Positions 3,683 through 16,310 of a stretch of 18,239 bases of DNA are shown here, piece by piece. Origin of the DNA: a virus (taxonomy: Duplodnaviria > Heunggongvirae > Uroviricota > Caudoviricetes); the IMG/VR virus record IMGVR_UViG_2609459801_000018; one strand, written 5' to 3'. The notes under the pieces were generated by a model that saw nothing but the letters and a program-made list of their open reading frames with translations, was not told where the DNA came from and did no database searches. Every line of letters begins with the position of its first letter. The first letter of the stretch is position 1. A program made the translations under genes and the position numbers.

Positions 3683-4283
3683 TTCGTTGTTACCACCATC
3701 AGCCAGCAATTTCATGCGTTGTGCCGAAGCCGTCGGAACACGCATTACAGACATTCCGGTAGACCTCAACACGCTGTGGTCGCCGGACACCTGCCCGGTG
3801 CATCTGCTGCCTTATCTCGCCTGGGCGTTTTCCGTTGACCGCTGGGATCGCAACTGGCCGGAAGAGACAAAGCGACAGGTGATTCGTGATGCATGGCTGA
3901 TACACCGACACAAAGGGACCATCAGCGCACTGCGAAGAGCCGTGGAGCCTCTCGGCTACCTGATTGAAGTAAAGGAGTGGTGGCAACTCAACGAGGAGCC
4001 GGGAACATTTCGCATTGTTGTCGGAGTACTTGATCAGGGCATCACCGATGAAATGCATCAGGAACTTGAGCGCCTTATTGCGGATGCAAAACCAGTAAGT
4101 CGCCATCTGACGGGGCTGGCGATCAGCCTGAGTGTGAACGGAAAGATTTTCGTTGGTACGGGATGCTATCACGGCGATGCCCTGACGGTTTATCCCTACA
4201 CCCCGGAGTCCATTATTGTCGAAGGGGACTATTTCCCTGCCCCGGCCATTCATTTAATTGATAATCTGAGAGTAAACGCATGA
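3675..4283 (+). CDS. baseplate/tail protein I
   Basis: Contains gpI-like motifs (LWSPDTCP..LLPYLAWAFSVDRWD, ERLIADAKPVSRHL). The start is chosen at the ATG at 3675, which overlaps the J stop (ATGAGTAA), rather than the ORF-track start at 3642. Confidence 0.8.
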   Translation: MSNSLLPPSASNFMRCAEAVGTRITDIPVDLNTLWSPDTCPVHLLPYLAWAFSVDRWDRNWPEETKRQVIRDAWLIHRHKGTISALRRAVEPLGYLIEVKEWWQLNEEPGTFRIVVGVLDQGITDEMHQELERLIADAKPVSRHLTGLAISLSVNGKIFVGTGCYHGDALTVYPYTPESIIVEGDYFPAPAIHLIDNLRVNA

Positions 4284-5950
4284 CAGTGAAATACTACGCT
4301 ATTCTGACTAATCAGGGCGCGGCACGACTGGCTAACGCGACGATGCTCGGCAGTAAACTGAATCTGACGCAAATGGCCGTTGGTGATGCAAATGGTGTGT
4401 TACCAACACCAGACCCTGCACAAACAAAACTGATTAACCAGAAACGCATTGCACCGCTGAATCTTCTGAGTGTTGACCCTAACAATCAGAGCCAGATTAT
4501 TGCGGAGCAAATCATCCCTGAAAACGAGGGAGGATTCTGGATCCGTGAGATTGGTCTTTATGATGATGAAGGTGCACTCATTGCGGTGGCAAACTGCCCG
4601 GAAACGTACAAACCGCAGTTGCAGGAAGGCAGTGGACGCACCCAGACTATCCGCATGATTCTGGTTGTCACGAACACCGAAGCCATCACGCTGAAAATCG
4701 ACCCGTCTGTGGTTCTGGCAACCCGCAAATATGTGGATGATAAAATATCAGAGCACGAACAATCACGACGTCACCCGGACGCCTCGCTGACCGTAAAAGG
4801 TTTTACTCAGTTAAGCAGTGCAATTAACAGTGAATCAGAAACACTGGCCGCAACACCGAAAGCGGTTAAGGCTGCATATGACCTGGCTAACGGGAAATAT
4901 ACCGCCCAGAACGCCACCACTACACAAAAAGGGATTGTTCAGCTCAGTAGCGCCACGAACAGCACGTCTGAAACGCTGGCAGCGACACCAAAAGCTGTTA
5001 AGGCGGTAATGGATGAAACGAACAAGAAAGCACCATTAAACAGCCCGGCACTGACCGGAACGCCAACAACACCAACAGCGCCACAGGGGGCTAATAGTAC
5101 CCAGATCGCAAGCACGGCTTTCGTTATGGCCGCGATTGCCGCACTTGTAGATTCGTCACCTGATGCACTGAACACGCTGAACGAACTGGCTGCGGCGCTG
5201 GGCAATGACCCGAATTTTGCGACCACCATGACTAACGCGCTTGCGGGTAAGCAACCGAAGAATGCCACCCTGACGGCGCTGGCGAAGCTTGCTACATCAG
5301 CAGATAAACTCCCATATTTTACAGGGGCAGATCGTGCCGCGTTAACCGCGTTGACAAGTGTTGGACGTGCCATTCTTGGTAAAACCAGCACTCAGGGAGT
5401 TCTTGATTACCTTGGTTTGGGGGAAGGCTCTGCACTGCCCGTTGGTGTACCTGTTCCGTGGCCCTCAGCCACTCCACCAACGGGCTGGCTGAAATGCAAC
5501 GGCGCAGCATTTTCTCCTGAAGATTACCCCAAACTGGCACAGGCTTACCCCGCGAACAAATTACCGGATCTACGGGGTGAATTTATCCGTGGCTGGGATG
5601 ATGGACGTGGCTTGGATGCTGGGCGTGCCTTGCTAAGTCTTCAGGATGACTCTTTTGAAGCGCACAGGCATGAGTCCTTTTTTTATGCGGGTATTTCACG
5701 TAATGAGATCCCATTAAAAAATCTTCCAAGTTCAGACGAGATGCTGACTTTAAGTTCCACAACTAATGCCTTGTCCCCGGACGATATTGATGCCACCAAC
5801 TCGTTAATTGGTAATGACGATTACAACTGTCTTATCGAAGGGAATAAAAATAACAAACGAACAGCGACAGGACTGAGTACCAGTATTGTCGGCACAGCAG
5901 AAACACGCCCCCGCAACGTTGCATTCAATTACATCGTAAGAGCCGCATGA
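4280..5950 (+). CDS. tail fibre protein H; constant N-terminal part (to about 5416) fused to the currently expressed variable C-terminal cassette A (5417-5950)
   Basis: 556 aa. The N-terminal ~370 aa resemble P2 gpH, including the duplicated QLSSA.NS.SETLAATPKAVKA motif; the C-terminal part begins LGEGSALPVGVPVPWP, the conserved cassette head. ATG overlaps the I stop. Confidence 0.9.
   Translation: MTVKYYAILTNQGAARLANATMLGSKLNLTQMAVGDANGVLPTPDPAQTKLINQKRIAPLNLLSVDPNNQSQIIAEQIIPENEGGFWIREIGLYDDEGALIAVANCPETYKPQLQEGSGRTQTIRMILVVTNTEAITLKIDPSVVLATRKYVDDKISEHEQSRRHPDASLTVKGFTQLSSAINSESETLAATPKAVKAAYDLANGKYTAQNATTTQKGIVQLSSATNSTSETLAATPKAVKAVMDETNKKAPLNSPALTGTPTTPTAPQGANSTQIASTAFVMAAIAALVDSSPDALNTLNELAAALGNDPNFATTMTNALAGKQPKNATLTALAKLATSADKLPYFTGADRAALTALTSVGRAILGKTSTQGVLDYLGLGEGSALPVGVPVPWPSATPPTGWLKCNGAAFSPEDYPKLAQAYPANKLPDLRGEFIRGWDDGRGLDAGRALLSLQDDSFEAHRHESFFYAGISRNEIPLKNLPSSDEMLTLSSTTNALSPDDIDATNSLIGNDDYNCLIEGNKNNKRTATGLSTSIVGTAETRPRNVAFNYIVRAA
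5400..5425 (+). other. invertase crossover site 1 (TTCTTGATTACC-TT-GGTTTGGGGGAA), inside the H gene
   Basis: 26-bp hix/gix-like site; the conserved half-site GGTTTGGGGGAA (complement TTCCCCCAAACC) is shared with the four other copies; the left half-site TTCTTGA resembles hixL. Confidence 0.75.
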
Positions 5951-5969
5951 AAACGTTGGTTTGGGGGAA
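5944..5969 (+). other. invertase crossover site 2 (direct orientation relative to site 1)
   Basis: CGCATGAAAACG-TT-GGTTTGGGGGAA; the stop codon of H (TGA, 5948-5950) lies inside the site. Confidence 0.75.
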
Positions 5970-6437
5970 GGCTCTGCACTGCCCGTTGGTGTGCCTGTTC
6001 CATGGCCCTTAGCAACACCACCAACGGGCTGGCTGAAATGTAACGGTGCAGCATTTTCTTCTGAAATGTACCCCAAACTGGCAAAAGCCTACCCCACTAA
6101 TAAATTACCGGATTTACGCGGAGAATTTATCCGTGGCTGGGATGATGGGCGAGGAATTGATGCGGCACGCGCTTTATTGAGCATTCAAAACGGGATGTTG
6201 GAAAAACACCGCCATATTGTTGTAGCTAACGATGGATATGACACAAAAGATGAATGGGAGTTGGCTACGATTTTCAAAAAAACATATACACAAGGCAGGG
6301 GGCTTGATGCCACAAATACAGGAGGGAGTTTGATTCCATCACCAACGCTTCATTCACGAGGAAGTATTGGTAACACAGGTGGTAGTGAAACCCGCCCCCG
6401 CAATATTGCATTTAACTATATCGTGAGGGCGGCTTAG
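5961..6437 (+). CDS. alternative tail-fibre C-terminal cassette B (silent; no ATG, the ORF-track start is TTG)
   Basis: 158 codons, open, beginning LGEGSALPVGVPVPWP...GEFIRGWDDGRG and ending ETRPRNIAFNYIVRAA like the other cassettes. Confidence 0.7.
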   Translation: MGEGSALPVGVPVPWPLATPPTGWLKCNGAAFSSEMYPKLAKAYPTNKLPDLRGEFIRGWDDGRGIDAARALLSIQNGMLEKHRHIVVANDGYDTKDEWELATIFKKTYTQGRGLDATNTGGSLIPSPTLHSRGSIGNTGGSETRPRNIAFNYIVRAA

Positions 6438-6443
6438 TTATAT

Positions 6444-7055
6444 TCAACTGGCTGCTGCCAGTGGTATTTCCGGCAAGTTGATATCTGGTACCATGTTTAT
6501 ATCCATTGCGTTCAGCGCGTCTATATAATCCAGCACGGCATTAAGCCGGGTGGTTTCTGCCTGCGTCAACTTCCGCCCGGCCTGCAACTTCAACTGAATC
6601 AGACTTATGGAAGCCATTGCCGCATCAGCCAGTGACTGGCGCTTGGTTTCTGCCGCTTCTACTGCGGCACGATGTTGTGCCTCAGTATCTGTCACCCATT
6701 TTTCACCATCCCATTTATCGTATGGTGTTAACGGGGCGATAGTGGTTGTAGTTTTCGGGTAGTCACCCAGCGCCGTGATTTCTTCGGTGTTTCCCGTGTC
6801 AGTGCTATAGACGGTTTCACCACGATGGTCTGGCGCATACTCCCATGAACTTAAATTCTCCGAACGGCGGATAGCATAGCCCGCTTTATGTGCGCCCGGG
6901 GCATCTAAACAGGAATTTGCCGGAATACCGACACCCACAGCAAGATATTCAGTTGATTCGGAAATATATTCCCGTGTCTCACCATCATAGTTATAAACGA
7001 CGATGTTTCCTGCCTGTACGGCAATAAGGTCATCATTTAATATCGCGTTATTCAT
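6444..7055 (-). CDS. tail fibre assembly protein (P2 gpG / Mu U family chaperone)
   Basis: 203 aa with a tfa-like C-terminus; its ATG overlaps the stop of cassette C (TAATG), so it is translationally coupled to that cassette. Confidence 0.8.
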   Translation of the reverse strand: MNNAILNDDLIAVQAGNIVVYNYDGETREYISESTEYLAVGVGIPANSCLDAPGAHKAGYAIRRSENLSSWEYAPDHRGETVYSTDTGNTEEITALGDYPKTTTTIAPLTPYDKWDGEKWVTDTEAQHRAAVEAAETKRQSLADAAMASISLIQLKLQAGRKLTQAETTRLNAVLDYIDALNAMDINMVPDINLPEIPLAAAS

Positions 7056-7513
7056 TATGCGGTTCTCACAATATAATTGAAGGCAATATTGCGTGGGCGG
7101 TTTTCATTCCCATCTGAGGATTCCGTTCTGTATTGACTGGTAAATCTACCGTTAATTGCACCTTGCCGGACGGCGTTATCTGTCGACAACAGACTATCCC
7201 CTCTTTTGTCATTTGGCACCAGTACCGTGTTATCCCACGCATCCCATGACCGAATATTATGATAATGACTTCCTGTTAACCACCCCTGCATGCTTAAGAT
7301 GCCCCTTCCGGCATCCACCCCGCGCCCATCATCCCAGCCACGGATAAACTCACCGCGTAAATCAGGTAATTTTAACGTTGGGTAAACCTTTGCCAGATTT
7401 GGGTACATTTCAGAAGAAAATGCTGCACCGTTACATTTCAGCCAGCCCGTTGGTGGTGTGGCTGAGGGCCATGGAACAGGCACACCAACGGGCAGTGCAG
7501 AGCCTTCCCCCAA
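7055..7513 (-). CDS. alternative tail-fibre C-terminal cassette C (silent, inverted), paired with the tfa gene
   Basis: 152 codons, open, with the conserved head and the conserved tail ENRPRNIAFNYIVRTA; starts at the TTG within site 3. Confidence 0.7.
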   Translation of the reverse strand: MGEGSALPVGVPVPWPSATPPTGWLKCNGAAFSSEMYPNLAKVYPTLKLPDLRGEFIRGWDDGRGVDAGRGILSMQGWLTGSHYHNIRSWDAWDNTVLVPNDKRGDSLLSTDNAVRQGAINGRFTSQYRTESSDGNENRPRNIAFNYIVRTA

Positions 7514-7530
7514 ACCAACGTTTTCATGCT
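7505..7530 (-). other. invertase crossover site 3 (inverted relative to site 1)
   Basis: Plus strand reads TTCCCCCAAACC-AA-CGTTTTCATGCT; contains the stop codon of cassette D. Confidence 0.75.
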
Positions 7531-7952
7531 GCCCTTACGATGTAATTAAACGCAATATTACGAGGACGAATGGTTACATAATTGACCCCATCACCTCGTG
7601 AAGGTCCTGCAAATGAAAAACGGGAAAAGCTTGGTTGGTTAGAAACAATTTGGTCATAGTTATTGATTGAATGACCAGACCCAATGTCGAAATTACCTCC
7701 GTAATGAGAAAAACTTGTACCATCCTGCCCTGAAAGCAGGGTACGTCCCGCATCAATCCCGCGCCCATCATCCCAGCCACGGATAAATTCACCCCGTAAA
7801 TCCGGTAATTTATTGGTGGGGTAAGCCTTTGCCAGTCCGGGATACATTTCAGAAGAAAATGCTGCGCCGTTACATTTCAGCCAGCCCGTTGGTGGTGTTG
7901 CTGAGGACCACGGAACGGGCACACCAACGGGCAGCGCAGAGCCTTTCCCCAA
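7524..7952 (-). CDS. alternative tail-fibre C-terminal cassette D (silent, inverted)
   Basis: 142 codons, open; head is GKGSALPVGVPVPW (K in place of E), tail is RPRNIAFNYIVRAA. Confidence 0.7.
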   Translation of the reverse strand: MGKGSALPVGVPVPWSSATPPTGWLKCNGAAFSSEMYPGLAKAYPTNKLPDLRGEFIRGWDDGRGIDAGRTLLSGQDGTSFSHYGGNFDIGSGHSINNYDQIVSNQPSFSRFSFAGPSRGDGVNYVTIRPRNIAFNYIVRAA

Positions 7953-7969
7953 ACCAACGTTTTCATGCT
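7944..7969 (-). other. invertase crossover site 4 (inverted; one mismatch in the conserved half-site, TTTCCCC instead of TTCCCCC)
   Basis: Plus strand reads TTTCCCCAAACC-AA-CGTTTTCATGCT; contains the stop codon of cassette E. Confidence 0.7.
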
Positions 7970-8486
7970 GCCCTTACGATGTAATTAAACGCAATGTTGC
8001 GTGGGCGGTTTTCGTTTGCAGTTGGAACAATTTTTGAAGCATCAAGGCCAATCACTTTTGGGTAAACAGCGCCGTCTGTCCTTTCTGTCACCATACTTCT
8101 GACTAAGGAGAAATAACTATTGTTTGTTGAGGAATTTAAAGGCACCACTGCCCCCTTAAACGAGCCTACTGATTCCCATATTGAATAATTTTCAGTGTTT
8201 ACAGTCTTGAACTCACCATAGATATTACGTATGGCATCACCTTGAGCGGATAATATTGTTCTCCCCGCATCCGCACTACGTCCATCATCCCAGCCACGAA
8301 TAAATTCACCCCGTAAATCCGGTAATTTATTGGTGGGGTAAGCCTTTGCCAGTCCGGGATACATTTCAGAAGAAAATGCTGCGCCGTTACATTTCAGCCA
8401 GCCCGTTGGTGGTGTTGCTGAGGGCCACGGAACGGGCACACCAACAGGCAGCGCAGAACCTTCCCCCAAACCAACGTTTTCGTTTT
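7963..8486 (-). CDS. alternative tail-fibre C-terminal cassette E (silent, inverted)
   Basis: Open frame with conserved head LGEGSALPVGVPVPWPSATPPTGWLKCNGAAFS and tail ENRPRNIAFNYIVRAA. The ORF-track extension to 8526 starts at TTG and runs through site 5, so it is unlikely to be a real start. Confidence 0.65.
8461..8486 (-). other. invertase crossover site 5 (inverted), 55 bp upstream of the invertase start
   Basis: Plus strand reads TTCCCCCAAACC-AA-CGTTTTCGTTTT; same conserved half-site as the others, with a distinct outer arm. Confidence 0.75.
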
Positions 8487-8540
8487 TATCCCTACCTATA
8501 CCAACTATGTATTTTTCACGAAACAAAGAGGATGTTTTTT

Positions 8541-9140
8541 ATGCAAATTGGCTATGTTCGTGTGTCAACAAATGACCAGAACACGGATTTACAACGCAAT
8601 GCACTGAACTGCGCAGGATGTGAACTGATTTTTGAAGATAAAATCAGCGGAACGAAATCAGCCAGACCGGGATTGAAAAAACTGCTCAGAACGCTATCAG
8701 AAGGAGATACGCTGGTTGTCTGGAAGCTGGACAGACTGGGCAGAAGTATGAAACACCTGATCACGCTTATTGAGGAATTGCGGGAAAAAGGTGTTAATTT
8801 CCGTAGTCTGACGGACAGCATTGACACATCAACACCCATGGGGCGTTTCTTTTTTCACGTCATGGGGGCTTTAGCCGAAATGGAACGTGAATTAATTGTA
8901 GAGCGTACACTGGCCGGGCTGGCAGCAGCACGCGCACAAGGACGCATTGGCGGACGTCGCCCGAAGTTGACAAAAGAACAACACGAGCAAATAGCGAGGC
9001 TGATTAAAAACGGTCATGACAGGAAACAACTGGCGATCATTTACGACATCGGCATATCGACGATTTATCGTTATCACCCTGTAGGCGATATACAGGCTGA
9101 AGAAACAACCAGGCAGACTCAGGAAAATGAAAACCGCTAA
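8541..9140 (+). CDS. site-specific DNA invertase, small serine recombinase of the Hin/Gin/Pin/Cin/Min family
   Basis: N-terminus MQIGYVRVSTNDQNTDLQRNAL with the catalytic Ser in VSTNDQ; motifs VVWKLDRLGRS, GRFFFHVMGALAEMERELI..ERT and a C-terminal HTH region, near-identical in pattern to Pin/Gin. AGAGGA RBS 8 nt upstream of the ATG at 8541; the ORF-track start at 8346 is rejected. Confidence 0.93.
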   Translation: MQIGYVRVSTNDQNTDLQRNALNCAGCELIFEDKISGTKSARPGLKKLLRTLSEGDTLVVWKLDRLGRSMKHLITLIEELREKGVNFRSLTDSIDTSTPMGRFFFHVMGALAEMERELIVERTLAGLAAARAQGRIGGRRPKLTKEQHEQIARLIKNGHDRKQLAIIYDIGISTIYRYHPVGDIQAEETTRQTQENENR

Positions 9141-9159
9141 TCTGACCATTAGCGGTTTT
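9130..9159. terminator. bidirectional intrinsic terminator between the convergent invertase and U genes
   Basis: Perfect 12-bp inverted repeat AAAACCGCTAAT / ATTAGCGGTTTT with a 6-nt loop, flanked by T-runs on both strands. Confidence 0.6.
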
Positions 9160-9166
9160 GCGTTAA

Positions 9167-9661
9167 TCAAAACAGCCCTTTAACGGAGCTGGCCGCGCTG
9201 TTAAGGGATGATGTGACCTTATCTTTGAAGCCGGACAGCATATCACTGAACGATGAGGATTGCAGGCGCTCCCGCAAATCCTCATCACAGCGTTCAAGAG
9301 TCAGTGAAAACTCTATCTTTTTCGCCTTACCGTAGCGATCAAACTCGGAGCGGGTCGTATTCGTTCCGGTCAGGACATACATGCCGTAAATCTGCCCGAC
9401 ACCATCAATCAGAGGCCAGGGGCGTCCTGTATATGCCTGCGTGGTCAGCAACGAAAGCGACACTTCGCCACCTGTAATTTCAGGATAAAGCACACCAGAA
9501 AGAACGATGCGATCATCGCCTGCCCCGATATACTGCCAGCTTGCTGAACGGTTAACGCGTTCATTTTTCACATGCCGCCAGCTTTTGTTTTGCTGTAACT
9601 GCTGATGCGGCAACGTACGCAGCTCAAAAACAAACATGCCGTAGATCATCATCATGGCCAT
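9167..9661 (-). CDS. tail protein U
   Basis: 164 aa; N-terminus MAMMMIYGMFVFEL and the GAGDD / PLIDG motifs resemble P2 gpU; immediately downstream of T. Confidence 0.8.
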   Translation of the reverse strand: MAMMMIYGMFVFELRTLPHQQLQQNKSWRHVKNERVNRSASWQYIGAGDDRIVLSGVLYPEITGGEVSLSLLTTQAYTGRPWPLIDGVGQIYGMYVLTGTNTTRSEFDRYGKAKKIEFSLTLERCDEDLRERLQSSSFSDMLSGFKDKVTSSLNSAASSVKGLF

Positions 9662-9667
9662 GACTCC

Positions 9668-12511
9668 TCAATCTTTATCGTAAAAACTGCCACGCCCGGC
9701 ACGGGCGCGCCGTTCCATTTCTGCCCTGACCATTTCACCGACCAGTTTCGCCAGTTCGCGGGGATTCTGCGTAACAACGTTATGCAGATGAACATGAATT
9801 TCACCACCAAATCCGGAGGCAACAGGCTCCCGGTTACGGGAAGTTACAGGAACTGATGCCACTGGAGATCGTATGGCCTCCGCCACCGGGCGGGAGCTGG
9901 CCGCAACAACAGGGACCAGCGCCGGAGGCAGCGGAGCCGGGACCACGGGGGTGATATTCATTGCGGGGGCAGGCTTACTGACCTGTGCAATCTTCCGCTC
10001 CTGCCACTCCCCACGAACAGCAAGTGCGCGGGGCAGGTTCTTAAAGACAATATCGCCGGGGCCAATACGTTTTTTTGTCTCATCAACCAGCTTACCTGTG
10101 TTATCAGCAATTTTGCTGAGTCTGCGTAGCGTGCCGGTATTGCTGTCTGTGAGCGGTTTGTTGTCTTTGGGTTTATCGCCTCCGGTGCCATTGCCATTTT
10201 CCGCAGACTTCGGCGGATTGATTTTCGCAATGTCTCCCTGAAACAGAGCAACCTTGTCCTGAAGAATGGCCGCACGCTGTGCGTCTTCGATTTTCTTTCT
10301 CGCCCTTTCCGCTTCATCCGGAAGCACACCGAGTTTTTCAAGTATCCACGCCAGCGTATCCAGCAACATTTTTGCAGGCGTCAGAACAAGCTGTAGCGCG
10401 CCACCAAGAGCGTTACCGAATATCTCGCCAGCACTGGTACATTTATCCAGCGTTTCCTTGCTGGACTCCATCGGTGACAGCAGCGATTTAAACCAGTTAA
10501 ACACCTGGCTGATCCCGCTTCCGATTGCGTCAAAAACAGGACCAAACCGTTCAAAGGTTTCACGCAACGGGTTCAGCCTTTCCATAATCCCGCTGAACAC
10601 CCCGGCAAAAAATGCCCTGATGGGATCCCAGTATTTCCAGATAAGAACGGCAGCTCCGGCAAGCGCAGCCACGATAAGACCAACCGGACTGAACAGCGCC
10701 CCGATAGCGCCTCCCAGCAAAGAAACGGAACCCGTCACCATTCCCCACAGCGCAGGCAACACCCTGACGACATTCATTGACCGGGTAAGAATGTCAAAAC
10801 CAAGACGCAGGGTGGCCAGCTTCCCGTAAAGCACCCCAATAACCAGTGACAACGAGCCAATCGTTGCAGTCATTGCCAGCAACGCACCGCCTGCTATCAG
10901 TAGCTGGCGCGTCAGTACCGGATGGGCCTGCGCCAGCGAGGTGATTTTTTCAAGCACCCGCGTGAGCCACTGCGTGACAGAACGCAGCGGACCGTCAACC
11001 AGATCACTGATGCGAATACGAAGACCTTCCCATGCGCTGTCGAGATTTTTCAGGTCCCCATCAAGATTATCGGCCATTACTTTTGCAACGCGATCGGCCT
11101 CTCCCCTTGCCCCCTGCAATTCTCTGGTCAGTTTTTGCAGCTCTCCTGAACCAGCCGCCGCAACAAGCGTCTGCAAACCAACGAACGCCTCTTCTCCGGC
11201 GATGTCCTTGAAGAAGGAGACCTGGTCCACCTGTCCGTATTTTTGTGTCGCCTTATAGAGATCAAGCAGCACATCCTCCATCGGGCGCATTTTGCCTCTG
11301 GCGTCAGCAACTGACACCCCCAGCTCTTTCAGTGCATCAGCCGCAGCTTTTGGCGGTGATGCAAGGCGGGACAGACTTGCGCGCATGGCCGTGCCAGCAT
11401 CGCTTCCGCGAAGACCATTATTGGCAAGCATCCCGGCCATAGCCGCCGCTTCTTCAAGACTGATACCAAGTTTTGCGGCAACCGGACCGGTATACTTCAT
11501 GGTTTCGCCCAGCGCGCGTAAATCAGTATTGGTCCGGGTGAATGCCGCTGTCAGCGTATCGCCAACCCGGTCCATTTGATCGGCTGTCAGGTTGAACTGT
11601 GTGAGGATATTGGAGCCTATATCCGCCGTCTCGCCGAGTTCGACGCCACCTGCCAGCGCCATATTAAGAACACCGGGCAATGCGGCCTGAATGGCCTGCG
11701 GAGTAAAACCAGCCATTGCCAGAAAGCTCTGCCCACTGGCGGCATCACTCGCAGTAAACTGTGTTTCAGAGCCAAGTTTTAACGCCTGCTCACGCAGCGC
11801 CTTAAACTGCGGGCTGTTTTTGTCGATTCGCGTCAGTGCCTGAACGCGGGACATCTCTTTGCCGAACCCGATCGCAGGCTGCAAAAAACGCCCGGCAGCA
11901 TAGCCGCCCGCCGCTGCCGCACCAATTGCCAGCGCACCACCTGTTTTCAGTTTTCCCGCGGTTTCCTGCGCGCGCGAATACCGCTCACGCGCCCGCGTTA
12001 CACGCGCAAGCGCCTGCCGTTCGCGTTCAAGCTGGTTGTTGTACTGTTCGGTGCGTCTGATGGCCTGCTGGATGGTGTTATCGCTGCCTGTCAGGGAAAT
12101 GCCGTGGCGTTTCAGCTCTCCGCCAAGCTCCCGCATTTTCTGAATTTCCCGTGTGCGCGATTCATTCAGGCGTTCAAGCCGGGTGCTTAACTGCTGCATC
12201 AGCTTTTGTTGTTTTTCGCTGAGCACTGTACCCGTGCGTTGTAACTGATTAAGGGCGTTAAGCTGGCGTCGTGCTTTCACGATACCCGCATCCGCTTTAC
12301 TGACAGCGTCGCGGGCGCGCTCAAATGATCGCGCCTGACGCTCGAGATTTTTGATCGCCCCCTGCGTTCGCTGGATGGAGTCACCAAACTGCCCCATCAG
12401 GCGGCGGGCGTTTTCGGCAGGCCGGGTCAGCCTGTCAACGGCGCTGAAAGCGACCCGGATATCAAGAGTCTTCATTGTCTGCATTCCCGCTGCGAAGTGC
12501 CGCCCGCTCAC
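9668..12511 (-). CDS. tail tape measure protein T
   Basis: 947 aa, coiled-coil N-terminal region, Ala/Gly-rich hydrophobic central segments, typical position between E' and U. The start is uncertain: GTG at 12511, or ATG at about 12484 or 12475. Confidence 0.88.
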   Translation of the reverse strand: MSGRHFAAGMQTMKTLDIRVAFSAVDRLTRPAENARRLMGQFGDSIQRTQGAIKNLERQARSFERARDAVSKADAGIVKARRQLNALNQLQRTGTVLSEKQQKLMQQLSTRLERLNESRTREIQKMRELGGELKRHGISLTGSDNTIQQAIRRTEQYNNQLERERQALARVTRARERYSRAQETAGKLKTGGALAIGAAAAGGYAAGRFLQPAIGFGKEMSRVQALTRIDKNSPQFKALREQALKLGSETQFTASDAASGQSFLAMAGFTPQAIQAALPGVLNMALAGGVELGETADIGSNILTQFNLTADQMDRVGDTLTAAFTRTNTDLRALGETMKYTGPVAAKLGISLEEAAAMAGMLANNGLRGSDAGTAMRASLSRLASPPKAAADALKELGVSVADARGKMRPMEDVLLDLYKATQKYGQVDQVSFFKDIAGEEAFVGLQTLVAAAGSGELQKLTRELQGARGEADRVAKVMADNLDGDLKNLDSAWEGLRIRISDLVDGPLRSVTQWLTRVLEKITSLAQAHPVLTRQLLIAGGALLAMTATIGSLSLVIGVLYGKLATLRLGFDILTRSMNVVRVLPALWGMVTGSVSLLGGAIGALFSPVGLIVAALAGAAVLIWKYWDPIRAFFAGVFSGIMERLNPLRETFERFGPVFDAIGSGISQVFNWFKSLLSPMESSKETLDKCTSAGEIFGNALGGALQLVLTPAKMLLDTLAWILEKLGVLPDEAERARKKIEDAQRAAILQDKVALFQGDIAKINPPKSAENGNGTGGDKPKDNKPLTDSNTGTLRRLSKIADNTGKLVDETKKRIGPGDIVFKNLPRALAVRGEWQERKIAQVSKPAPAMNITPVVPAPLPPALVPVVAASSRPVAEAIRSPVASVPVTSRNREPVASGFGGEIHVHLHNVVTQNPRELAKLVGEMVRAEMERRARAGRGSFYDKD

Positions 12512-12991
12512 GCCAGCTAACCACTTCGCCGGGCGTCATCATGAAGATTTCGGCGGGCGACCAGTTAAAAATGGCGGCAATATCCGCCACAAAGTCTTCT
12601 ATGTGCTCAAAGCACACAACCGTGATCAGGCTTCCGTCGCCTGTTCGCTCTTCCCGCCAGAGTCCGCACCGCTCAAAAAATTTACGGCAACCACACATAA
12701 CTGAATAAAATCACGGGATGCCATTTTTTTGATCGTCACTTCATCCAGTCGTGGCGAGGTCACGCGTGACAGCAGCGTAAACATGGATTCCGCTTTCAGA
12801 TTCAGCACATCAGACAGCGACAAATCTCGCAGAGATCCAGCCTGCTCAATAGCCCCGGTGATCTCCACATACGTGATTTTTTCGCCGCCTCGCTCAATTG
12901 GTTGGGTAAGTTTTACGCCACGCTCACTGGTTTCTTTCACAGTGTCAGTAACTACCGTGTTTTCGGTATCGATGTTTTTCGTCTCTTTCAT
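12462..12991 (-). CDS. tail assembly chaperone E' (E+E' fusion made by a programmed -1 frameshift near 12674-12680)
   Basis: ORF 12462-12698 is in the -1 frame relative to E and is open from just downstream of the TTTTTTG site. Shifting there gives ...VAVNFFERCGLW..., matching the second ORF. Its end overlaps the start of T. Confidence 0.7.
12626..12991 (-). CDS. tail assembly chaperone E
   Basis: 121 aa, acidic, between the tube gene and T; contains the slippery heptamer, as in the P2 E/E' arrangement. Confidence 0.8.
   Translation of the reverse strand: MKETKNIDTENTVVTDTVKETSERGVKLTQPIERGGEKITYVEITGAIEQAGSLRDLSLSDVLNLKAESMFTLLSRVTSPRLDEVTIKKMASRDFIQLCVVAVNFLSGADSGGKSEQATEA
12674..12680 (-). 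promoter_or_regulatory. programmed -1 ribosomal frameshift slippery site TTTTTTG (E to E')
   Basis: The coding (minus) strand reads AAT TTT TTG AGC in the E frame; the downstream -1 frame is open for about 70 codons. Confidence 0.65.
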
Positions 12992-13045
12992 CAGGAAACT
13001 CCTTTCAGTCAGAGGCGACGCACTGCGCCGCCTGCATATTACTTA

Positions 13046-13558
13046 TCAGCCAAGCCCGAGCGCGGAACGGATGCGATCGGGCACAATGTCCTTGCCGTCC
13101 TTCCGGTAGATGTGGTTCAACAGGTCGATTTCCCACAGCGGGCGATCGTTAACGCTCAGCTTGTAGTAGGTGTTTTTGACAGCGTAAGTGTGTGATGTGG
13201 CTTCGCCCTGTTTGGCCTCCCCCATATCAATTTCCGTCACACGCCCGCGCATCTCGATTTCATACAGATCGCTTTCTGCATCGGTGTAGTATTCACCCGC
13301 AAAACGCAGCAGCGTGCCGTCAATCGTGCCGCCATATTTAAGGAACAGCGCACGAACAGCTCCCCCCATGACAAAGCTCGCATCAAGCGCGGAGTCGTCC
13401 AGACCGAGATCAATACTTACCGCCCCCATCATGCCACCACCCCGGTAGCTGTCGGTTTTGCGCGTCAGCTTAGGCAGAGTGACGGACGTCACCTTACCCA
13501 CTTCGTTTTCACCATCCACAAACAGCGTAAAAAAGCGAAGATGTTTTGGTACAGCCAT
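13046..13558 (-). CDS. major tail tube protein FII
   Basis: 170 aa; start overlaps the FI stop; length and position match P2 FII. Confidence 0.88.
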   Translation of the reverse strand: MAVPKHLRFFTLFVDGENEVGKVTSVTLPKLTRKTDSYRGGGMMGAVSIDLGLDDSALDASFVMGGAVRALFLKYGGTIDGTLLRFAGEYYTDAESDLYEIEMRGRVTEIDMGEAKQGEATSHTYAVKNTYYKLSVNDRPLWEIDLLNHIYRKDGKDIVPDRIRSALGLG

Positions 13559-14742
13559 CAGGCACCTCCCAGCACCGCAAATGCGGGACCAAAGAATTCA
13601 TCAGTAAACGTCTGGTAAAGCTCCATGTCTTCCAGTGGCGGAACGGGCGTATATTTGTAGCGAATACGCACACGTCCCTGACGTAAATCCGTGGTGCCGT
13701 TATCCACCACGTCATACCAGCACTCCGCGCCAATCAGTTTCCCGGCAGTAACCAGCGAATCCAGTTTTGCCCTGATGGCACTGATAACATCCTTCACGTT
13801 CGCAGGCGTCAGTGGACTGTCGATGGTTTCAAACTGCGCTTCCGCAATTGAATCAGCCAGCACCTGTGCGGTTCGGGTATACACCTCAAAGATGTAGGCG
13901 TTCGTTTCCGGTGTGCGGTTGCCCCAGAAGCGGAACCCGTTACGACGAATAATGGTCGTGATTTCTTTGTTGTTGAGGCTGTTGGCATCACTGTCTTCGG
14001 CCTGTAACGACCAGAACACATGCCTCGACATCCCCAGCACATTTTTAACCGGAACGTTGGACAGCGATTTGTGCCAGCCCTGCTCATGGTCAATGTACGC
14101 ACGAAGGCCGCACGCATAAGCAGGCGCGGGGAACGTTTCGTTTTTGCCACTTTTCGGGTTGTAGGCGATGAAGTCAGGCCATAAGAGCATCACCTCACGT
14201 TCGTTGAATTTCTGGCGGTAGGTAATCGCCTCAGCCATCGTGTTACAACCATGACATGCGGCATACACAAACGCGCGCAGTTTACCCGCAATCACGCACA
14301 GGGATTTTGTCACCGCCTCCGTGTCCAGCTCCGGCGCGGCCAGAATACGCGGACGGTATCCGATGCTTTCATCCTGCTCTGCAACAAGCAGCGCATACAT
14401 CCCCGTATAGCTGCCGTCAGATTCAGAACCACCGATAACCAGTTGATCCTGCGTCTTTCCGTTTTCTTCTTTGTGTTCAGCCACGCGAACGACGATCACC
14501 TTTGTGCTCACCTGGTCTGCGATGGCCTTAAGCGCACGATAAAGCGTCCCCGTTGTCCCGCATTTTCCCAGCACGTCATTGACGCGGGTCAGCAGTGTGG
14601 GCTTGTTCAGCGGGAACAGCTTCGCGTCCGCATCATCCGCCGTTGCCACGATACCGATAACGCTGGAATCAACATCGTTAATCGCTGTTACCAGGTCGGT
14701 ACTTTCCGTAACACGGGCACCATGAAAACGAGTTTCACTCAT
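13558..14742 (-). CDS. tail sheath protein FI
   Basis: 394 aa; length, composition and position upstream of the tube gene match the P2 FI sheath. Confidence 0.9.
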   Translation of the reverse strand: MSETRFHGARVTESTDLVTAINDVDSSVIGIVATADDADAKLFPLNKPTLLTRVNDVLGKCGTTGTLYRALKAIADQVSTKVIVVRVAEHKEENGKTQDQLVIGGSESDGSYTGMYALLVAEQDESIGYRPRILAAPELDTEAVTKSLCVIAGKLRAFVYAACHGCNTMAEAITYRQKFNEREVMLLWPDFIAYNPKSGKNETFPAPAYACGLRAYIDHEQGWHKSLSNVPVKNVLGMSRHVFWSLQAEDSDANSLNNKEITTIIRRNGFRFWGNRTPETNAYIFEVYTRTAQVLADSIAEAQFETIDSPLTPANVKDVISAIRAKLDSLVTAGKLIGAECWYDVVDNGTTDLRQGRVRIRYKYTPVPPLEDMELYQTFTDEFFGPAFAVLGGA

Positions 14743-14899
14743 AGCTTCAGCCCCTTGTATCCGTTAAATGATTCGGCAACAATCATCACCCACCACGCGC
14801 GTAATCTCACCCCTGCGCCGTTCTCCCGCCACGGCGACAACAAAAAGCAGTAACCCCCTCCGCACGCACATGCGACCATGCCGCACAGGGAGGGAGCAG

Positions 14900-16009
14900 A
14901 TGACCGACACCACCATGCAATTGCTCAGTCAGGGCACAGACCCCGTGAAAATGCCGGATTTTGATATTCTCGCGGAGGGTAAAACGCTGTCAGGCGTGGC
15001 AGAGTGCCTGATGAGCCTGTCACTGACCGACAACCGGGGATTTGAGGCGGACCAGCTCACCATCACGCTGGATGATGCGGATGGTCAGTTGCAGCTACCG
15101 CCACGGGGCGCGCGCCTGACGGTTCTCATTGGCTGGAAAGGAGAACCGCTGACAGAAAAAGGCACTTACATTGTTGATGAAATCGCTCACGAAGGACCGC
15201 CGGACAGGCTGACTGTTTCAGCCAGAAGCGCAGATTTTCGGGATGAATTTAACGTTAAACGTGAGGTGTCCTGGCATGATGTGACCGTTGAGCGTGTGGT
15301 ATCCGCCATCGCTCATCGGTATGGTCTGAAACCGCAAATCAGCGAAATGCTGATGGATATCGAAATCGACCACGCCGACCAGACCGAAGAAAGCGACATG
15401 TCCTTCCTTACGCGCATGGCGGAAATGCTGGGCGCAATCACCACGGTAAAAAGCGGTAATCTGTTATTCATCATGCCCGGCGGTGGCGTGAACGCACAGG
15501 GCCAGCCGTTGCCATCGTTTGCCATCACACGCAGCAGCGGCGATCGCCATCAGTTCCGCATTGCTGACCGCGAAGCGTATACGGGGGTACGCGCTTACTG
15601 GCTTGATCTTAATTACGGGAAAAAGAAAAAAGTCAGCGTGAAACGCCGTAAACCGCCAAAACCCAAAAAGGAGAAAAGCAGCAGCCGTGAAGGTGATTAT
15701 ATGGAAGGCGCGGAAGGCAATGTGTTTGTGTTACGCAAGACTTATCAGAACGAGCAGACAGCAAGACGCGCAGCGGCGGCAAAGTGGCAGCAACTACAAC
15801 GCGGAGCCGCATCATTCTCCATCACGCTGGCGCGTGGACGTGCAGAACTCTACCCCGAAATGCATGGCACGGTAACAGGATTTAAAAGCGAGATTGATAA
15901 TCAGGACTGGATCATTGCAAAAGCCGAGCACACCATTGATAACAGCGGTTTTACCACGCAGCTTGAGCTTGAGGCAAAAATCCCGGAATGGATAGCGGAA
16001 ACAGAGTGA
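14900..16009 (+). CDS. tail protein D (P2 gpD-like)
   Basis: Motifs TDNRGFEADQL.ITLDD, SARSADFR, SWHD, and the lysine-rich KKKVSVKRRKPPKPKKEK segment as in P2 gpD. Start chosen at the ATG at 14900, preceded by GGGAGGGAG, rather than the ORF-track start at 14768. Confidence 0.85.
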   Translation: MTDTTMQLLSQGTDPVKMPDFDILAEGKTLSGVAECLMSLSLTDNRGFEADQLTITLDDADGQLQLPPRGARLTVLIGWKGEPLTEKGTYIVDEIAHEGPPDRLTVSARSADFRDEFNVKREVSWHDVTVERVVSAIAHRYGLKPQISEMLMDIEIDHADQTEESDMSFLTRMAEMLGAITTVKSGNLLFIMPGGGVNAQGQPLPSFAITRSSGDRHQFRIADREAYTGVRAYWLDLNYGKKKKVSVKRRKPPKPKKEKSSSREGDYMEGAEGNVFVLRKTYQNEQTARRAAAAKWQQLQRGAASFSITLARGRAELYPEMHGTVTGFKSEIDNQDWIIAKAEHTIDNSGFTTQLELEAKIPEWIAETE

Positions 16010-16049
16010 GCAACTTAGAATAGGCAGCACCACGTTAAGGGAGGTCGCT

Positions 16050-16310
16050 ATGTTCCGTTGTCCGCTTTGTGGCGCATCTGCCCGTATCCGCACCAGTCGT
16101 TCGGAAAATGATTCAAACACCGTACGGAAAAAATATTACCAGTGTAACAACCTGGAATGCGGCATAAGTTTCTCAACACTGGAAGCTTTCCATAAATTCA
16201 CATCGAAACACGCCCCCGGCGTTCACTCTTCAGAAGGTATCCCGTGGCATGAGTTGCCAGCTTCACACAGGGGAAACAATCAGATGAGTTTGCCTTTATC
16301 TCAGAATTAA
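16050..16310 (+). CDS. ogr: Ogr/Delta-family zinc-finger late transcription activator
   Basis: N-terminus MFRCPLCGASARIRTSR....YYQCNNLECGISF reproduces the Ogr C-x2-C...C-x4-C zinc-finger pattern; AAGGGAGG RBS; located after D as in P2. Confidence 0.8.
   Translation: MFRCPLCGASARIRTSRSENDSNTVRKKYYQCNNLECGISFSTLEAFHKFTSKHAPGVHSSEGIPWHELPASHRGNNQMSLPLSQN

Follow-up and report, generated by a model that had tools for sequence, protein, structure and literature searches.

How does one tail-fibre gene come to be followed by five alternative ends, and can the end that it carries be exchanged? The question is raised by the IMG/VR record IMGVR_UViG_2609459801_000018, a stretch of 18,239 nucleotides (nt) that we call the window throughout, in which the tail-fibre gene H is followed by an invertible region and then by the gene of a serine DNA invertase. 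The region holds five sites of 26 bp (s1 to s5), five alternative 3' ends for H (cassettes A to E) and a tail-fibre assembly gene, tfa. This stretch covers the tail half of a P2-like Escherichia coli prophage that is integrated beside serS. We assign its tail-fibre region, with a probability of about 0.93, to the Min-type multiple DNA-inversion systems. An earlier examination made from the letters of the stretch (hereafter, the sequence-only reading) had proposed that a serine invertase acting on five sites exchanges the C-terminus of the tail fibre among five cassettes. Exact fusion proteins, four permutations of the same elements and breakpoints located in the site cores bear this out.

The first line of evidence comes from the sites. 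The half-site TTCCCCCAAACC, searched in the window with at most one mismatch, has 5 copies against 0.10 expected, and none of 200 shuffles reached 5. The search returned the five 26-bp sites at exactly the positions and in the orientations that the sequence-only reading had given (Table 1). Read from the cassette side, each of them consists of a 12-bp half-site, AA and a second 12-bp half-site. The inner half follows the consensus TT(C/T)CCCCAAACC next to the AA core in all five sites; on the sense strand it reads GGTTTGGGGGAA, encodes G-L-G-E and makes up the first 12 nt of the cassette. The variant inner half of s4 travels with cassette D. The outer halves are degenerate, like those of mix and pix sites, and belong to different neighbours: the end of the H constant part at s1, the final codons, with the stop, of the cassette before it at s2 to s4, and the fixed flank on the side of the invertase at s5.

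We then aligned the sites with the known Din-family sites collected in Table 3 of PMC3241671, a comparison that the sequence-only reading had recommended, and found them to be of the mix type. Site s1 is identical to mixQ''R' of plasmid p15B at 26 of 26 positions, and s5 agrees with mixMI''L' at 24 of 26. Relative to the internal mix sites of p15B, s2 and s3 are identical at 23-24 of 26 positions and s4 at 22. The inner half-site of pix, from e14 (TTCTCCCAAACC), differs from the one found here at one position. This site consensus, along with the natural isomers described below, rejects simple gene duplication as the source of the repeats.

The five cassettes are built on one plan. All match the Pfam family Collar (PF07484), start with GLGEGSALPVGVPVPWP (GLGKGSALPVGVPVPWS in D) and end with RPRN(I/V)AFNYIVR(A/T)A. 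They have about 78 N-terminal residues and the last 14 in common, while their middles are wholly divergent. The previously described layout, with a site at the 5' edge of each cassette, conserved ends and divergent middles, is what we find, at a measured length of 143-178 codons. The region contains long repeats, both direct and inverted (215-280 bp, 78-90% identical), which are the conserved 5' parts of the cassettes. As also described before, only cassette A is joined in frame to the H constant part, in an open reading frame (ORF) at 4280-5950, and the other four have no ATG; the TTG "starts" listed for cassettes B to E are the Leu codon inside the site or, for E, a mechanical upstream TTG. 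When we joined the cassettes to H in silico at the core dinucleotide, all five were in frame. The constant part itself is 99-100% identical among related loci. One gene, tfa, was absent from the earlier description. It lies between B and C, directly 3' of C and converging on B, in a segment (B-tfa-C) that has cassette 5' ends at both borders.

Table 1. Positions of the sites, coding elements and other features of the invertible region and its surroundings in the window.
Feature	Positions	Strand	Remarks
H constant part	4280..5413	+	378 codons, ends ...VLDYL at the s1 core; Pfam Phage_tail_fib, Phage_fiber_2, Collar
mix site s1	5400..5425	+	core TT/AA 5412-5413; TTCCCCCAAACC AA GGTAATCAAGAA; expression junction between H constant part and cassette
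Cassette A	5414..5950	+	178 codons; currently fused to H and expressed
mix site s2	5944..5969	+	same orientation as s1; core 5956-5957; ...AA CGTTTTCATGCG
Cassette B	5958..6437	+	159 codons, silent; forms one border of the B-tfa-C segment
tfa	6444..7055	-	tail-fibre assembly (chaperone) gene; Pfam Caudo_TAP E = 9e-31; phrog_105 tail fiber assembly
Cassette C	7055..7516	-	153 codons, silent; stop abuts tfa start
mix site s3	7505..7530	-	inverted relative to s1; core 7517-7518; ...AA CGTTTTCATGCT
Cassette D	7524..7955	-	143 codons, silent
mix site s4	7944..7969	-	core 7956-7957; TTTCCCCAAACC AA CGTTTTCATGCT
Cassette E	7963..8472	-	169 codons, silent
mix site s5	8461..8486	-	core 8473-8474; ...AA CGTTTTCGTTTT; outer half belongs to the fixed flank next to the invertase
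Din-family serine DNA invertase	8541..9140	+	199 aa, intact; Pfam Resolvase (E = 2e-51) and HTH_7
Putative recombinational enhancer (Fis sites)	8559..8630	+	position taken from the homologous nt 19-90 of P1 cin
Hairpin	9130..9159		perfect 12-bp stem with flanking A/T runs, between the convergent invertase and gpU genes

The enzyme fits the sites. The claim that a Pin/Gin-like invertase lies just outside the fifth site stands: its ORF is intact, begins 54 nt beyond s5 and has both the Resolvase and the HTH_7 domains, with the catalytic Ser9 in the motif GYVRVSTNDQ. It matches the Gin structures 4m6f and 3uj3 with E ~1e-91 over residues 1-185. The comparison with known invertases places it in the Din family, with an amino-acid identity of 82.6% to PinE of e14 and of ~74% to Gin and Cin. 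The closest relatives are the invertase of the P1-like plasmid pKOr024_2 (94.2%), which has mix-type sites and nine cassettes and served as our proxy for Min, and that of the prophage in E. coli E2348/69 (99.0%, with differences at 2 of the 199 residues). The invertase of pJIE250-3 (MN510445) is reported to be 98.5% identical to Min.

Aside from the catalytic gene, we located a putative recombinational enhancer inside its 5' part, taking the position of the Cin enhancer from the annotation of the P1 record. The stretch is 74-88% identical to its homologues, and the blocks at its two ends, TCAACAAATGA and GCGCAGGATGTGAAC, are both conserved. A scan with the Fis consensus gave one clear 15-mer match, and the second block, GCGCAGGATGTGAAC, fits GNNYRNNWNNYRNNC. 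By homology to Gin, Cin and Hin, the invertase would be expected to depend on a Fis-bound enhancer, and this stretch may be that element.

The second line of evidence is the existence of the alternative arrangements in nature. We assembled the hypothetical junctions that inversion would create, each made of the last 200 nt of the H constant part (Hc) followed by cassette B, C, D or E, and searched for them in complete E. coli genomes. Each was found as a single contiguous match, at 100% identity for Hc-B, 96.8% for Hc-C, 97.8% for Hc-D and 93.8% for Hc-E; the 100% identical Hc-B junction occurs in strain 266917_2. In addition, the five full-length fusion proteins were assembled in silico from the window alone and looked up as exact sequences. 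All of them are annotated as E. coli proteins: H-A in 32 contigs, H-C in 15, H-B in 11, H-E in 7 and H-D in 4.

Mapping the variable middles onto related loci revealed the same five cassettes, tfa and the invertase, at ~100% identity, in four permutations. The order in the window is A> B> tfa< C< D< E<. It is B> tfa< C< A< D< E< in strain 266917_2 (locus L008), A> C> tfa> B< E< D< in a further related locus (L076) and A> D> B> tfa< C< E< in another (L078). We compared these orders with a state model in which inversion is permitted only between oppositely oriented sites. Three single-cassette segments (A, D and E) and the B-tfa-C segment give 3! x 4 x 2 = 48 arrangements and five H proteins, and all 48 states can be reached in at most four inversions. 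All the observed permutations are among the 48 predicted states, 2-3 inversions away from the window. The suggestion of the sequence-only reading that the region has many isomeric states, beyond the two of a G or C segment, is in agreement with this number.

The third line of evidence is the position of the breakpoints. Two assemblies of E2348/69 differ by one inversion, NC_011601.1 expressing H-D and CP059840.2 expressing H-C followed by tfa, and the identical inverted block (6133-8134 of locus L002) is bounded exactly by the core dinucleotides of s1 and s3. Between the window and the locus of strain 266917_2, the sequences of cassettes A, B, D and E agree throughout, starting with the first base past the core, the outer half-sites are swapped for A and B, and none of these four cassettes is chimeric. 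Since the breakpoints fall on the core and the cassettes are unmixed, the exchange is site-specific at the 2-bp core. Cassette C of strain 266917_2 has two differences from that of the window (at 7460 and 7464, in the conserved 5' part), and both correspond to the bases of cassette B. The two inverted repeats that border the B-tfa-C segment may thus have undergone gene conversion, and these two bases are the one sign of homologous exchange in the comparison.

The locus of E2348/69 also provides the link to experiment. Sequencing of single-colony cultures of this strain revealed two overlapping inversions in its P2-like prophage, at 1891695-1893703 and 1892127-1893703 of NC_011601.1, with four coexisting variants that were confirmed by polymerase chain reaction and three alternative C-termini (Goldberg et al. 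2014, PMC4272514). We found that these coordinates correspond to s1, s2 and s3 of the E2348/69 locus, and the window locus is therefore the five-site sister of an active three-site switch. The two belong to the same prophage family and have the same gene order, with an H constant part that is 99% identical, a 99.0% identical invertase and the same s1; they also have cassettes B, C and D and tfa in common. They differ in that E2348/69 has three sites, three cassettes (D, B and C) and 4 states, whereas the window adds A and E to reach five sites and 48 states.

Taken together, these data are best accounted for by the following scheme. The invertase would bind the five mix sites, cut at the central AA/TT and exchange strands between any two inverted sites. 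The sites straddle the codons ...VLDYL / GLGE..., and any cassette placed behind s1 would be fused in frame to the 378 codons of H. Each cassette would form a fibre tip like that of T4 gp37, and the virions or tail particles made by a population of lysogens would differ in receptor specificity, with five specificities in all. The switch is very probably active in this strain.

What would be exchanged can be described in more structural terms. The best solved relative of the cassettes is the receptor-binding tip of the T4 long-tail-fibre protein gp37 (PDB 2XGF). The start of the cassettes aligns with the collar region of gp37 (E = 1.8e-17) and the terminal NIAFNYIVR with its C-terminus. The likeness lies in the collar motif at the start and in the terminal ...NIAFNYIVR(A/L)A; the cassette middles differ from that of gp37 in being much shorter (~50-85 residues) and unrelated in sequence. 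In 2XGF the gp37 chain runs to the distal tip and then returns to the collar, and this out-and-back course would explain why the cassettes have conserved ends and a free middle. By analogy, the variable middle is likely to be the distal part that recognises the receptor, and the conserved start and end would form the collar. An inversion may thus change the receptor or the host range. Cassettes A (HRH, ~5660-5672), B (HRH, ~6201-6213) and C (HYH, ~7256-7268) have a His-x-His motif after the collar that aligns with HSH of gp37; D and E are without it. Such motifs bind iron in the gp37 needle.

We considered other explanations for these observations. The one that survives best, which we nonetheless regard as unlikely, leaves the switch in place and changes its purpose: the element would be a tailocin or defective prophage, its tail module domesticated, and the same inversions would vary the spectrum of competitors that are killed instead of the hosts open to an infectious phage. 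The genes visible in the window are indeed restricted to tail, baseplate and late-control functions, a gene foreign to P2 (DUF6645/SASA) lies in the late operon, and P2-type remnant prophages with invertible fibre genes act as bacteriocins in Xenorhabdus and Pectobacterium (cited in PMC4272514). However, relatives of this prophage retain the P2 lysis genes, and the one in E2348/69 retains the head completion gene and tail protein X upstream. The window also encodes Ogr/Delta and gpD, the prophage ends next to serS on its right side like an ordinary P2-type prophage, and there is no sign of a loss of head genes, which lie outside the window.

Considerably less probable is a frozen relic, that is, a Min-type architecture that no longer inverts here, for example if the invertase were unexpressed or the host context blocked it. 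A single state in the window would be expected of a relic, as would relatives that lack cassettes (the four-cassette loci) or have frameshifted or partial genes (loci L004 and L006), and one state makes up ~90% of the population of E2348/69 (PMC4272514). Yet the ORF of the invertase is intact and 2 of 199 residues away from the enzyme of an experimentally active locus, the half-site and the AA core are kept in all five sites, 100% identical elements occur in at least three other permutations, and the five exact fusion proteins exist. Because identical elements are found in other permutations and the exact fusions exist, inversion in this lineage must have been very recent. In the least credible alternative, the rearrangements come from RecA-dependent recombination of the homologous inverted repeats (215-280 bp) instead of action of the invertase at the 26-bp sites: the repeats are long and similar, and the two B-like single-nucleotide polymorphisms (SNPs) in cassette C of strain 266917_2 resemble gene conversion, but the exchange point is the 2-bp core in every comparison, including the core-to-core block of E2348/69, cassettes A, B, D and E retain their own SNPs from the first base past the core where crossovers in ~85% identical repeats would give chimeras, and the sites are identical to characterised mix sites, and the core-dinucleotide breakpoints lead us to reject such recombination as the driver.

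Several observations nevertheless weigh against a five-way switch of fibre tips working as in our scheme. The window itself has one fixed arrangement, and variation in this lineage is seen between genomes. Four related loci (L073, L074, L075 and L077) encode exactly the same H-A protein and carry cassettes A to D at 100% identity, in two permutations, and have no cassette E; these relatives may reflect the loss, or the gain, of a cassette within the lineage, and some loci may be decaying. The synonymous-codon test of the putative enhancer gave a weak excess, with 45-62% of the codons conserved in this stretch against 35-41% elsewhere. The AlphaFold2 model of cassette A, built with the shallow alignment of the five cassettes, is unusable (predicted local distance difference test score of 34, predicted template modelling score of 0.21). 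Finally, cassette C is the only one that has a co-oriented tfa, which leaves the folding of the other four tips unexplained.

This last point concerns the arrangement of tfa in the Min-type system. For tfa to read in the direction of H, the B-tfa-C segment must be flipped, and C is the only cassette with the gene directly downstream. Seven of the nine distinct loci that we mapped have tfa antisense to H, the orientation seen in the window. A tentative explanation, which we find possible but doubtful, is that most tips fold without a co-transcribed assembly protein, either because gp37-like collar tips are independent of a chaperone or because tfa is expressed alone or supplied in trans by other prophages. 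If so, B-tfa-C would represent an ancestral two-state switch onto which chaperone-free cassettes were stacked later, these cassettes coming from a pool of ~24 types common to P2-like prophages and P1-like phage-plasmids.

How does this locus compare with the systems already known? The Min system is carried by p15B, a P1-related plasmid of E. coli 15T-, and the fusion there is to gene S. The window locus differs in that it lies in a chromosomal P2-like prophage and is fused to gene H. The two have much in common: the crossover sites (26 of 26 positions for s1), two fixed flanks, a two-ended segment (M there, B-tfa-C here) along with several single-cassette ones, an invertase of the same family and, as their target, the alternative 3' ends of a tail-fibre gene. 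They differ in the number of elements, with six sites and four single-cassette segments in p15B against five sites, three such segments and 48 isomers here. The Min system, described by Sandmeier, Iida, Arber and co-workers in 1990-1992, is reported to have 240 isomers, and the formula that gives 48 here gives 240 there. The layout of p15B follows from the names of its sites (Ml, Mr, N, O, P and Q between the flanks L and R; PMC3241671 Table 3), which imply an M with two ends and single-cassette segments. A Min-like region in phage vB_EcoM-673R5 was set aside as a comparison, given that its invertase is split ("Hin1/Hin2"), that it has one clean site and that the assembly looks poor.

The two-site Din systems (Pin/P of e14, Gin/G of Mu, Cin/C of P1 and Hin/H of Salmonella) use the same family of recombinases and 26-bp sites with a 2-bp core. 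In Mu and e14, as here, the gene of the invertase is found immediately beyond the last site, and an alternative C-terminus of the tail fibre is fused by the same logic. In contrast with the five ends described here, these systems have two sites and two states, and Mu, P1 and e14 have an assembly gene for each alternative end where the window has a single tfa. Hin differs further in flipping a promoter rather than a coding end.

The sequence-only reading had called the region a shufflon. In its working the word is apt, since overlapping inversions supply alternative C-termini to one surface-recognition protein and produce many isomers, as in the shufflon of R64. The enzymology is different: R64 uses the tyrosine recombinase Rci, sfx repeats and the PilV adhesin, whereas the only recombinase in this locus is a serine recombinase acting with mix sites. 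A strict definition of shufflons, with Rci acting on sfx, does not cover it.

Multi-site serine-invertase systems had been taken to be rare, a premise that fails in E. coli, where we found mix sites, the three-site sister and loci with up to seven sites or nine cassettes. The sequence of the internal site is confined to Escherichia among species-representative genomes, and it occurs in 55 prophage stretches of IMG/VR, with 1-7 mix-like sites each. Larger loci than that of the window include a six-cassette chromosomal locus (L003) and the P1-like plasmid pKOr024_2 (NZ_CP147095.1), which has nine annotated cassette genes. Given these seven sites and nine cassettes, and the 55 IMG/VR stretches, the five-site locus is an ordinary member of the Min-type family in E. 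coli and not a new kind of system. In line with this, the enzyme family, the sites, the architecture and the behaviour in populations have already been described, in Min of p15B and in the prophage of E2348/69.

The cassettes themselves are drawn from a common repertoire. A set of 64 loci yielded 201 intact cassettes, whose variable middles are of ~24 types; the five cassettes of the window are all among the common types, and B and C are the most frequent. One cassette protein (WP_059279521.1) is annotated both in pKOr024_2 and in chromosomal P2-like prophages of other strains. Strain KOr024 has two such switches, one in a P2-like prophage of the chromosome (NZ_CP147099.1) and one in the P1-like phage-plasmid pKOr024_2, whose invertase is 94% identical to that of the window, and the two could cross-react within one cell.

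As a clear and well-supported case, the locus illustrates how one enzyme and ~3 kb of DNA could let a temperate phage, or a particle derived from one, hedge its bets over five receptor specificities. It also has consequences for annotation, as silent cassettes are routinely listed as separate "phage tail protein" genes. The expressed H differs between assemblies of one strain, so comparisons of prophages or pangenomes, and predictors of host range, should treat the region as one invertible locus.

The surroundings of the switch are those of a P2-type tail region. On the plus strand, the window opens with the 3' end of a gene with a DUF6645 domain, followed by gpR, gpS, gpV, gpW, gpJ, gpI and H, the invertible region and the invertase. 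A block on the minus strand then carries gpU, the tape measure gene, a short ORF, the tube gene FII and the sheath gene FI. The short ORF has no match in Pfam, and its relatives are annotated as "tail protein". The right end consists of gpD and Ogr/Delta on the plus strand and of serS, on the minus strand, as the last gene. All complete E. coli genomes have a match to the serS end, and prophages related to this one occur widely.

P2 has its genes H, G, FI, FII, E, T, U and D in a single orientation. Here, the FI-FII-E-T-U block (9167-14742) lies on the strand opposite to H and to gpD and ogr (14768-16310), and the start codon of FI is 25 bp from the start of the gpD ORF. The same opposite-strand layout of FI to U is present in E2348/69 and in other relatives. 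A search of the window for further or cryptic Din-type sites, including the borders of the FI-U block, gave none besides the five. A scan for promoters upstream of the invertase and of the silent cassettes returned nothing convincing, with 3 matches against 7 expected. The hairpin between the invertase and gpU is likely to be a bidirectional terminator that closes the module.

Lastly, positions 1-738 of the window are the 3' end of a gene for a protein of 626 residues, found in full at 579-2459 in two related loci (L073 and L074). The protein has SASA (carbohydrate esterase), DUF6645 and weak DUF1737 domains, and its gene follows the lysis genes and precedes gpR in the late operon, a position at which the relative in E2348/69 has no gene. 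This protein could be a virion-associated polysaccharide esterase or a moron.

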